Virus record (IMG/VR): IMGVR_UViG_2547132252_000008
DNA from: a virus
Taxonomy: Duplodnaviria > Heunggongvirae > Uroviricota > Caudoviricetes
Length of the DNA stretch: 7,335 nt
Direction: 5' to 3' (one strand)
The notes below the pieces were generated by a model. It had not been told where the DNA came from, did no database searches, and worked only from the letters and a program-made list of their open reading frames with translations. Position 1 is the stretch's first letter. Every line of letters starts with the position of its first letter. The translations under genes and the position numbers were made by a program. Positions 415-6,985 of this stretch are shown here, piece after piece.

Positions 415-426
415 AACATAAAAAAA

Positions 427-453
427 TCCCGCAGTGATCGCGGAGCTGCGGGA
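427..453. other. Conserved stem-loop downstream of the I-like fragment (stem TCCCGCAG / CTGCGGGA, 11-nt loop), preceded by an A-tract.
   Basis: Perfect 8-bp inverted repeat at 427-434 and 446-453. The same stem recurs at 2562-2588 with a different loop. On the + strand there is no T-tract after it, but on the - strand it is followed by TTTTTTTATGTTTT. Confidence 0.4.
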
Positions 454-468
454 CAGACAAATGATCGT

Positions 469-2550: not shown

Positions 2551-2561
2551 AAATAAAAAAA

Positions 2562-2588
2562 TCCCGCAGAGTTAGCGGAGCTGCGGGA
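2562..2588. other. Conserved stem-loop downstream of I (stem TCCCGCAG / CTGCGGGA), preceded by the A-tract at 2551-2560.
   Basis: Same 8-bp stem as at 427-453. Read on the - strand it is a hairpin followed by a T-rich run, which is the form of an intrinsic terminator. On the + strand it has no U-tract. Confidence 0.4.
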
Positions 2589-2595
2589 GAGAACG

Positions 2596-2715
2596 ATGAA
2601 GATTAACGTTATGGAGTTATTTTTCAGGCATCAAAAAAGTAATGCAGCGTCATTATTGCGGCTACAGGCAATTGCCGGAAATGTGAAGAGTTTCAGAAAT
2701 TTTATTCCGTCATGA
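2596..2715 (+). CDS. Hypothetical small basic protein (39 aa), candidate moron ORF between I and J.
   Basis: ATG 2596 to TGA 2713-2715 encodes MKINVMELFFRHQKSNAASLLRLQAIAGNVKSFRNFIPS. There is a GGGAGAGA purine run 6-13 nt upstream, and the strong terminator hairpin follows immediately. It is below the size cut-off of the ORF track, and no homology is known to me, so confidence is low. Confidence 0.3.
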   Translation: MKINVMELFFRHQKSNAASLLRLQAIAGNVKSFRNFIPS

Positions 2716-2716
2716 C

Positions 2717-2747
2717 ACAGGCACCCTCCGGGGTGCCTGTTGTTTTC
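2717..2747 (+). terminator. Rho-independent terminator-like hairpin just upstream of J.
   Basis: Perfect 10-bp stem ACAGGCACCC (2717-2726) / GGGTGCCTGT (2731-2740) with a UCCG tetraloop (UNCG class), followed by TGTTTTCT. Confidence 0.6.
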
Positions 2748-2790
2748 TGGCATAAACAGATTCAGACATCAGACAGGAGAGGGGGACAGA

Positions 2791-6282: not shown

Positions 6283-6308
6283 GGGCGCCAGAAATGGCGC
6301 CTTTTTTA
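6283..6308 (+). terminator. Rho-independent terminator after J.
   Basis: Stem GGCGCCA (6284-6290) / TGGCGCC (6295-6301) with a GAAA loop, followed by TTTTTT (6302-6307), 19 nt after the J stop. Confidence 0.65.
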
Positions 6309-6331: not shown

Positions 6332-6931
6332 ATGCGTAAATTATGTGCTGTTATTTTGTCCGCAGTAGTCTGGCAGGTCGCCGCTGCTACGCCAGCGAGT
6401 GCAGCAGAACATCAGTCCACGCTGAGCGCGGGGTATCTCCATGCCTCGACGAACGTTCCCGGTAGTGATGATCTGAACGGGATTAACGTGAAATACCGTT
6501 ATGAGTTTATGGACGCGCTGGGGCTGATTACGTCCTTCAGTTATGCCAATGCTGAGGATGAGCAAAAAACGCGCTACAGCGATACCCGCTGGCATGAAGA
6601 TTCCGTGCGTAACCGCTGGTTCAGCGTGATGGCGGGGCCGTCTGTACGCGTGAATGAATGGTTCAGCGCGTATGCGATGGCGGGTGTGGCTTACAGCCGT
6701 GTGTCGACTTTCTACGGGGATTATCTCCGCGTAACTGACAACAAGGGGAAAACGCACGATGTGCTGACCGGAAGTGATGACGGTCGCCACAGCAACACGT
6801 CTCTGGCGTGGGGAGCTGGCGTGCAGTTTAACCCGACCGAATCCGTGGCCATTGATATTGCTTATGAAGGCTCCGGCAGTGGCGACTGGCGCACTGACGG
6901 TTTCATCGTGGGTGTCGGTTATAAATTCTGA
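6332..6931 (+). CDS. lom: Lom-like outer-membrane beta-barrel protein (Ail/Lom/PagC/OmpX family), 199 aa.
   Basis: N-terminal signal peptide (MRKLCAVILSAVVWQVAAATPASA-AE). The C-terminal third (AWGAGVQFNPTESVAIDIAYEGSGSGDWRTDGFIVGVGYKF) closely matches lambda Lom as I recall it and ends in a terminal Phe, as outer-membrane barrels typically do. GAGAGG lies 5 nt before the ATG. Its position between J and stf matches lambda. Confidence 0.9.
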   Translation: MRKLCAVILSAVVWQVAAATPASAAEHQSTLSAGYLHASTNVPGSDDLNGINVKYRYEFMDALGLITSFSYANAEDEQKTRYSDTRWHEDSVRNRWFSVMAGPSVRVNEWFSAYAMAGVAYSRVSTFYGDYLRVTDNKGKTHDVLTGSDDGRHSNTSLAWGAGVQFNPTESVAIDIAYEGSGSGDWRTDGFIVGVGYKF

Positions 6932-6957: not shown

Positions 6958-6985
6958 AGCCCGCCGGTTCAGGCGGGCTTTTTTG
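6958..6985 (+). terminator. Rho-independent terminator after lom.
   Basis: Stem AGCCCGCC (6958-6965) / GGCGGGCT (6972-6979) with a 6-nt loop, followed by a T-run (6979-6984), 27 nt after the lom stop. Confidence 0.7.

Follow-up and report, generated by a model that had tools for sequence, protein, structure and literature searches.

The small RNAs (sRNAs) that most closely resemble the element analysed here have been described from prophages of two pathogenic Escherichia coli strains. PasB of EPEC strain E2348/69 is an 83-nt RNA encoded in prophage PP6 on the minus strand of NC_011601 (1466343 to 1466261), with the tail assembly gene E2348C_1436 (I) and the tail tip gene E2348C_1437 (J) as its neighbours (Pearl Mizrahi et al., 2021, table S6; PMC8550237). 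It was detected as a discrete RNA both by Northern blotting, for which the probe was AATCCCGCAGTGATCGCGGAGCT, and by RNA-seq, and its dependence on Hfq was apparent from log2 fold changes of -6.8 and -2.4 in a Δhfq background (PMC8550237). In the RIL-seq data PasB was recorded with a U-tract of 7 and 37 interaction partners, being the second RNA in ~99-100% of its chimeras, which involve many mRNAs, and its base mean in uninduced cells was 482-1082 compared with 5-15 for I and J (PMC8550237). A later survey places PasB inside an operon of phage structural genes and reports variants that differ by few nucleotides (Zhu, Shabalina and Storz, 2026, preprint). In EHEC strain Sakai, EcOnc22 (Sp15), EcOnc23 (Sp14) and EcOnc24 (Sp11) were reported as homologous Hfq-CRAC peaks (Tree et al., 2014; PMC4104026, table S2); EcOnc22 ran at ~85 nt on a Northern blot, which cannot separate the three identical Sakai copies, and was destabilized in Δhfq (PMC4104026). 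The field for an EHEC homologue of PasB is blank in the 2021 table (PMC8550237), and the EcOnc names are absent from the 2026 preprint. No physiological target or phenotype has been published for PasB/EcOnc22, the targets of EcOnc22-24 being given as unknown in a 2021 review and the function as not elucidated in the 2026 preprint.

The window, by which we mean the whole 7,335-nt stretch of viral DNA that was analysed (Caudoviricetes; IMG/VR record IMGVR_UViG_2547132252_000008), carries in order the 3' part of a first copy of I (copy 1), a short junction, L, K, a second I (copy 2), a spacer, J, lom and the start of stf. Copy 2 of I ends at 2550 and J starts with the GTG at 2791, the latter following the annotation of the identical VT1-Sakai, which leaves a spacer of 240 bp. 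The I gene of lambda ends at 15444 and its J gene starts at 15505, and the I-J gap is 60 bp (15445-15504); the comparison made in the initial annotation of this DNA, 240 bp here against about 60 bp in lambda, was correct in both figures. E2348/69 again has 240 bp between I (1465575-1466255, plus strand) and J (from 1466496, plus strand). We propose, with a probability of about 0.85, that the I-J spacer is a non-coding regulatory cassette known in prophages of pathogenic E. coli and that it holds an antisense sRNA gene of the PasB/EcOnc22-24 family. The pasB/EcOnc22-24 locus, with its sense terminator-like hairpin, is already known.

A 351-base query made up of the spacer and its surroundings matched 150 phage records, 138 of which cover at least 80% of the query. 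Most are Stx-converting phages; VT1-Sakai is 100% identical, and the window spacer itself is 100% identical to those of Sakai prophages Sp15, Sp14 and Sp11. Our comparison set consisted of 81 I-J spacers, drawn from 80 viral contigs encoding close relatives of I, plus reference loci. Spacer length was 234-260 bp in 54 of the 81, with longer classes of ~342, 424, 715 and 851 bp, and it is the 60 bp of lambda that is the outlier among the lengths compared. The insert was found in 79 of the 81 related spacers, the natural parent of copy 1 included, and the suggestion that it is specific to this module can therefore be set aside. In 12 of the 81 related loci the I-J gap holds a complete antisense Cu/Zn superoxide dismutase gene (sodC), which makes this gap a genuine cargo ('moron') site.

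Three blocks can be distinguished in the spacer alignments. Block (a), a terminator directly past the I stop codon, consists of an invariant A7, T, CCCGCAG, a variable loop and CTGCGGG; block (b) begins with a moderately conserved core that gives way to a highly variable, indel-rich middle; and block (c) is a near-invariant stretch, AAATGTGAAGA..TTCAGAA.TTTTATTC.GTCATGA, leading into a sense-strand hairpin. The features of the spacer exceed chance, and its conservation belongs to a minus-strand RNA gene and to the sense-strand RNA hairpin, not to the open reading frame (ORF) of 39 codons that lies between them. The published PasB probe is the sense strand of block (a), that is, of the hairpin that follows the I stop codon, and it is found verbatim in copy 1 of the window (427-449).

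Homology to E2348/69 PasB places a predicted pasB/EcOnc22-type, Hfq-dependent sRNA gene of ~76 nt at 2555-2630 on the minus strand. The 5' end was set by homology to the annotated 83-nt PasB, and the primary start possibly lies up to ~15 nt further upstream (~2645); the predicted length of the window sRNA is accordingly 75-76 or ~91 nt, compared with ~85 nt on the Northern blot. The homologue lies in the I-J spacer on the strand opposite I and J and is identical to the mapped PasB (UGCCCGAGUAACAAAAACAACUCCUUCACAUUGAUCUUCAUUUGUCUGUCCCCGCAGCUCCGCGAUCACUGCGGGAUUUUUUU) in 63 of 83 aligned columns (76%), with a deletion of 6 nt. Both RNAs occupy the same slot, starting 5-6 nt past the I stop codon in a 240-bp spacer, and they share the terminator stem with U7 and a conserved core (AACUCC...AUCUUCAU), whereas the window allele is 6-7 nt shorter, has another terminator loop and has a weaker -35 region. 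As the PasB variants of the 2026 survey differ by few nucleotides, the window allele may fall outside the set that it covered. The sRNA homologue overlaps just the first 35 nt of the 39-codon ORF, in antisense, and lies for the most part outside the core interval of the initial annotation (2596-2747). That annotation had allowed that the DNA may encode a small RNA rather than a protein; this was right as to the kind of product, but strand, extent and terminator were all wrong.

The intrinsic terminator of pasB (2555-2588, minus strand) was recognized from a minus-strand terminator scan, from folding and from conservation. Its stem, CCCGCAG/CTGCGGG, pairs 2563-2569 with 2581-2587, with one more pair possible, around an 11-nt loop, and the U7 tail is the complement of the A7 at 2555-2561, which begins 5 nt past the I stop codon. 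Read on the minus strand, this GC-rich stem of 7-8 bp followed by U7 has the standard form of an intrinsic terminator, and PasB has the same stem and U7. This terminator is present in 79 of 81 spacers, its stem invariant across 38 distinct variants and its loop represented by 10 different sequences of 10-16 nt. Next to it, conserved alignment columns mark a single-stranded core (AAUAACUCC...UUAAUCUUCAU..., 2588-2622, minus strand), which is probably the seed region, and the sRNA body as a whole takes at least 10 allelic forms across prophages. When the window and the Sakai and E2348/69 loci were compared with Rfam 15, in which no PasB/EcOnc22 model exists, nothing in the I-J spacer was matched; the only matches were AgvB and STnc100, at the Sp10 control locus.

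For the EHEC RNAs the positions had to be recalibrated, the coordinates in the 2014 table being those of an older genome version. The offset was inferred from two landmarks: AgvB1, located with Rfam at 1.94 Mb, gave +137 to +146, and StxS (EcOnc15), located through tR' at 2.93 Mb, gave +123 to +130. After any offset in this range the EcOnc22 peak corresponds to 2644-2561 on the minus strand of the window, on the PasB homologue, and in the current Sakai record EcOnc22, EcOnc23 and EcOnc24 all fall within I-J spacers on the strand opposite I and J. Taken at face value the published coordinates would put EcOnc22 at window positions 2707-2767, antisense to the sense hairpin, a placement that we rejected on the AgvB1 and StxS/tR' calibration. 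The three Sakai loci have a 240-bp spacer identical to that of the window and are Hfq-crosslinked and antisense to I and J, and at the sequence level there is no difference between them and the window. EPEC PasB and the three EHEC RNAs, EcOnc22/23/24, are allelic members of a single family that occupies one fixed position.

The predicted promoter elements of pasB (2636-2657, minus strand) were inferred from the spacer alignment. A candidate -10 element, TACTTT (2641 to 2636), keeps the TAnnnT motif in all variants and predicts a start at G2629, in agreement to within 1 nt with the annotated 5' end of PasB, which is a coverage-based annotation. An alternative -10, AATAAT (2657 to 2652), would place the start near 2645, ~15 nt further upstream, and at this alternative position a promoter scan found TTCACA-16-TATAAT, an 11/12 match, in the E32511/E2348-type allele. 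For the window allele the scan gave no promoter above its thresholds, the -35 region (TTCCGG) being poor.

Within block (c), a consensus match identified a CRP-like box, AAATGTGA-AGAGTT-TCAGAAAT, at 2679-2700. This sequence, AAATGTGAAGAGTTTCAGAAAT, agrees with 13 of the 16 specified consensus positions and is the sole match in the window to AAATGTGA-N6-TCACATTT at three mismatches or fewer, where 0.01 would be expected by chance. Its half-sites, TGTGA and TCAGA, are invariant in 24 variants while the central spacer varies, and in both the window and E2348/69 the centre of the box is at -60.5 from the predicted start, which is G2629 in the window and again a G at the equivalent position of E2348/69. 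CRP-dependent class I promoters have a site centred near -61.5, and Spf is repressed by CRP. In EPEC, PasB was up in non-activating medium and Spf was up in activating medium (PMC8550237). Set against the control of Spf, this opposite response is indirect evidence consistent with CRP activation of pasB, and the putative box at -60.5 suggests that pasB is activated by cAMP-CRP.

A second hairpin, with a U-rich tail, occupies 2717-2750 on the plus strand, just upstream of the J ribosome-binding site, and was identified by folding and covariation. The stem-loop at 2717-2740 has 10 perfect pairs (7 of them G-C), a TCCG loop (UCCG in RNA) and the tail TGTTTTCTGG, with 6 U within the first 10 nt; the perfect 10-bp stem, tetraloop and U-rich tail 1 nt past the ORF stop had been correctly described. 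Folding of its 61-nt context gave -27.5 kcal/mol (z = -5.4), a stability that no sequence in 200 shuffles reached. In an alignment of 23 distinct sequences, pairing is kept in 98.3% of cells, a single base pair switches between C-G and U-A in 8 sequences, with U-G intermediates, and there are 12 further G.U cells, at which the minus strand would have C.A mismatches. Because of this covariation and of G.U pairs that exist in the plus strand only, we take the hairpin to be selected in the sense (I to J) RNA. It terminates neither the ORF, as had been supposed, nor the sRNA, and is an independent, conserved structure of the sense transcript; the terminator of pasB is the hairpin with U7.

Non-homologous GC-rich hairpins with U-rich tails are found at this position in two other settings: the one in lambda folds at -17.8 kcal/mol (z = -2.8) and the one in the 342-bp spacer class at -32.2 kcal/mol (z = -6.3). 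The lambda hairpin (AAACCGCC-UGCG-GGCGGUUU followed by UGUCAUUU) is likewise GC-rich, on the sense strand and just before J, with a U-rich tail, but it has no sequence homology to the window hairpin, and lambda is without pasB. The element is not universal, since in the 851-bp class, which carries sodC, J is not directly preceded by a terminator-like hairpin. With its GC-rich stem-loop, U-rich tract and conserved RNA structure, the hairpin at 2717-2740 has the make-up of an intrinsic terminator and is probably an operon-internal intrinsic terminator or insulator. In the lysogen it would halt non-antiterminated transcription before J, lom and stf, and during lytic growth Q-modified polymerase would read through it.

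We propose that the sRNA is made in the lysogen from its own promoter, and that it would be transcribed antisense to the tail operon from ~2630 (possibly 2645) to 2555, stopping at the invariant hairpin and U7. The RNA would be bound and stabilized by Hfq and would act mainly in trans, the single-stranded core upstream of the terminator base-pairing with mRNAs. An extension of this proposal, which we consider unlikely, is that the whole I-J gap works as a three-part switch, in which a cAMP-CRP-activated PasB/EcOnc22 would regulate host mRNAs in trans and also pair with the late transcript across the I-J junction, and in which the sense terminator would help to gate J, lom and stf between lysogeny and induction. 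Another possibility is a PasB that works chiefly in cis, where it would pair with the late-operon mRNA over the I-J junction and either direct cleavage of that mRNA or alter J translation, and in this way tune tail-tip output. The ~76 nt of the sRNA are fully complementary to the late mRNA, and its position 5 nt past I is fixed in 79 of 81 loci, although this fixed position may simply reflect inheritance. Moreover, uninduced lysogens, in which I and J are barely expressed, contain the RNA in abundance, and its trans partners are numerous; we regard a mainly cis-acting PasB as quite improbable.

It could also be argued that the spacer produces a sense-strand sRNA, as a primary transcript or by processing of the 3' end of the I mRNA, which would end at 2717-2740 and serve as an sRNA, a sponge or an antisense partner of PasB. 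The hairpin is selected in plus-strand RNA, the ~40 nt upstream of it are nearly invariant, and convergent or overlapping sRNA pairs are common in such prophages. No sense-strand Hfq peak or RIL-seq candidate has been reported for the spacer in Sakai or E2348/69, however, and neither a scan nor inspection by eye found a plus-strand promoter for a sense sRNA or for the ORF. The CRP box and the upstream pasB promoter DNA explain the invariant block at least as well, and we give a sense-strand sRNA little chance of being correct. The antisense PasB/EcOnc22-type gene remains our preferred reading of the spacer.

The initial annotation was built around the 39-codon ORF (2596-2715, plus strand), which runs from the ATG at 2596 to a stop ending at 2715 and specifies 39 amino acids, MKINVMELFFRHQKSNAASLLRLQAIAGNVKSFRNFIPS. 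Both the ORF and the purine-rich stretch upstream of it are present as stated, and the ORF appears to be a chance reading frame. Among the 79 spacers that have the conserved first hairpin, a frame of 39-41 codons is intact in 17; the ATG is absent from the homologous site in 36, where ACGAAGAT or CAAAGAT is found instead (ACG or no start); and in the other 26 the ORF is frameshifted or truncated, the commonest allele (MKINHREFCFYW..., 31 codons) being one of these. The distance from the start site to the TGA, taken modulo 3 between fixed anchors in unique variants, was distributed 13:8:13, which is to say that there is no frame preference, and several of the in-frame variants have internal stops or no ATG. 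Since few spacers keep the frame, the ATG is often lost and the frame is random across variants, we take the ORF to be non-coding, and by these comparisons it is no gene. Neither the 39-aa peptide nor an overlapping 40-aa minus-strand ORF had a credible match in Pfam or PHROGs (best E = 0.26), and the position of the ORF is without an annotated gene in VT1-Sakai, Sakai, E2348/69 or the other listed records.

The gene-like appearance of the ORF can be traced to the RNA elements on either side. Its 'purine-rich RBS' (GGGAGAG) is formed by the 3' arm of the first hairpin and by the sequence complementary to UCUCUCCC of the sRNA, its ATGAAGAT pairs with the conserved AUCUUCAU of the sRNA as its complement, and its conserved C-terminal codons overlap block (c). 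The look of a ribosome-binding site followed by an ATG arises because anti-Shine-Dalgarno and anti-start motifs (CUCC, UCUUCAU) abound in the sRNA core. These observations bear directly on the idea of a protein-coding moron, in which a basic 39-aa peptide with its own ribosome-binding site would form a unit closed by the terminator at 2717-2740. The ORF, the purine-rich stretch and the strong hairpin 1 nt past the stop do all exist, and a few divergent variants retain a 39-41-aa frame ending in ...NVK(S/I)FR(N/I)FIPS. Against this, besides the loss of the start and of the frame in so many alleles and the lack of a family match, curated annotation or recognizable plus-strand promoter, the putative Shine-Dalgarno sequence lies within the 3' arm of the first hairpin, and the 'residues' conserved at the two ends of the peptide fall on the sRNA body, the CRP-like box and the hairpin flank. 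A protein-coding moron is very unlikely and is already largely refuted by the comparative data. Also very unlikely is a type I toxin-antitoxin-like pair, in which cis-antisense PasB would mask the ribosome-binding site and start of a sense ORF toxin. The sRNA does overlap the ORF in antisense, with perfect complementarity to its ribosome-binding site, its start codon and the 11 codons that open it. The ORF, however, lacks conservation, most alleles losing it yet keeping the sRNA; the peptide, being basic and amphipathic, does not resemble a hydrophobic membrane peptide; and PasB is an Hfq-dependent sRNA with many trans partners.

It had also been noted that homology between the two copies of I ends exactly at the ATGA of the ORF. 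Similarity does stop at the ATGA (461-464 in copy 1), but the cause is a lox-like insert at 465-503 and not a private insert in copy 2. Copy 1 is followed by a truncated second pasB copy of the E2348/69-type allele (420-464, minus strand), which has been cut down to the terminator with its U-tract plus ~12 nt of the body and in which AAAAAAATCCCGCAGTGATCGCGGAGCTGCGGGACAGACAAATGA contains the published PasB probe. At the junction between copy-1 I/pasB and the last M codons there is a 39-nt foreign insert (465-503) with a loxP-like site; it consists of TCGT followed by the site, ATAACTT[A]CGTATA ATGTATGC TATACGAAGTTAT (469-503). An exact loxP (13-bp arms ATAACTTCGTATA, spacer ATGTATGC) is absent, the left arm having one extra A (ATAACTTACGTATA); the spacer and right arm of the site are exact. 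Natural homology, as judged from O157 prophages, ends at window position 464 and resumes at 504-505 in the last M codons, and we conclude that the junction at 465-503 is non-natural. E32511, a natural relative of copy 1, continues with ATGAAGATCAATGTTAAGGAG..., which is homologous to copy 2 of the window, and in natural relatives of copy 1 homology runs through the whole ORF-equivalent region. The homology between copies 1 and 2 thus ends at the ATGA because the 39-nt lox-like insert replaces the natural sequence, and since the natural relatives of copy 1 continue, the insert between I and J is not private to copy 2.

Prophage sRNAs of other families were considered as relatives and rejected. 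The AgvB/AsxR anti-sRNA family resembles the present one in comprising short, prophage-borne, Hfq-binding sRNAs that are located in a late-operon gap and whose terminator module is conserved while the 5' part varies more. Its site is the PR' moron site downstream of Q/PR', however, and not the tail module, its sequences are unrelated and its Rfam models had no match here. PasA, PasC and PasD were rejected on location, being near Q, holin and an esterase gene, and HnrS (EcOnc10-12) and svsR belong to different loci.

The moron concept is said to go back to Juhala et al. in 2000, with lom and bor of lambda as the reported examples. Like those lambda morons, the I-J insert separates two genes that are direct neighbours in a related phage, has a terminator of its own and is expressed from the prophage. 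The minus-strand terminator is clear, and the promoter is predicted, at 11/12 in E32511-type alleles and weakly in the window allele. It differs from the lambda morons in that its cargo is a non-coding RNA on the opposite strand, while the same gap can carry sodC as a protein moron. The description of the insert as moron-like therefore stands for the extra DNA and for a true cargo site but fails for protein-coding cargo, the unconserved 39-codon ORF not behaving as a protein-coding gene under selection.

What looked like a neat unit of ribosome-binding site, ORF and terminator is a known antisense sRNA gene seen in mirror image, together with an unrelated sense hairpin, and recognizing this averts a mis-annotation. 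For EHEC, the coordinates of the 2014 table have to be shifted by ~+128 to +140 nt to fit the current Sakai record. The link between PasB and EcOnc22-24 is stated neither in table S6 of the 2021 study nor in the 2026 preprint. The CRP-like box ~60 bp upstream of the predicted pasB start offers a directly testable idea for how the sRNA may be controlled. If the three-part switch outlined above were true, the allelic sRNA bodies, of which there are at least 10, would give different prophages different sets of host targets.

The 39-nt foreign insert at 465-503 of the window consists of TCGT followed by a loxP-like site, ATAACTT[A]CGTATA ATGTATGC TATACGAAGTTAT, whose left arm carries one additional A. 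It bridges sequence from two prophage types, with I and a truncated pasB of one type on one side and the last codons of M, leading into L-K-I-J, of another type on the other. As natural genomes place the matching L upstream of the matching I, the I'-lox-M'L order of the window is not a natural one. The insert resembles a scar left by Cre/lox or recombineering, or alternatively the junction of a duplication or a circle. The pasB copy that abuts it (420-464, minus strand) is a second copy, of the allele type found in EPEC strain E2348/69, and is incomplete because it is cut off by this lox-like junction; it has lost the promoter and the 5' part, and all that is left is the U-tract with the terminator and some 12 nt of body, a remnant that includes the sequence of the published Northern probe.

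A candidate regulatory site for the pasB copy between I and J was recognized by sequence match as a CRP-consensus-like box, AAATGTGAAGAGTTTCAGAAAT, at 2679-2700. The box has its centre at -60.5 relative to the start predicted for pasB, and its half-sites did not vary in 24 spacer variants; none of the publications consulted mentions it. We note that the coordinates in table S2 of Tree et al. (2014) are shifted against the current Sakai RefSeq sequence, NC_002695.2, by about +137 to +146 nt when AgvB1 (at 1.94 Mb) is the landmark and by +123 to +130 nt when it is StxS/tR' (at 2.93 Mb). If these positions are used without correction, EcOnc22-24 are assigned to the wrong element inside the spacer.

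Strong, GC-rich sense-strand hairpins with a U-rich tail also lie just before J in the 60-bp I-J spacer of lambda (15454-15504; L003 1455-1505) and in the 342-bp spacer class (L004 1212-1270). These two hairpins and that of the window share no homology with one another, only their location, which suggests that the position before J is one where terminator-like hairpins recur. One variant (L013, ~2100-2141; alignment A3, columns 101-128) has additional tandem copies of a heptamer, TCAGACA/CAGACAT, in the stretch that separates the hairpin from the ribosome-binding site of J; the window has two copies (~2771-2784).

Downstream of J, lom (6332-6931) has the usual self-contained moron layout, being flanked by strong plus-strand intrinsic terminators at 6283-6302 and 6958-6979. 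Cargo is also found between I and J. In the 851-bp spacer class (12 of the 81 loci; L041 1882-2732), the gap also holds, between the pasB unit and J, a complete sodC-like gene for a Cu/Zn superoxide dismutase, which lies antisense and has a terminator of its own, and these alleles have CATCCTCCC in place of the upstream TATAAT-type -10 of pasB. The presence of this gene demonstrates that the I-J gap is a genuine site of cargo insertion.
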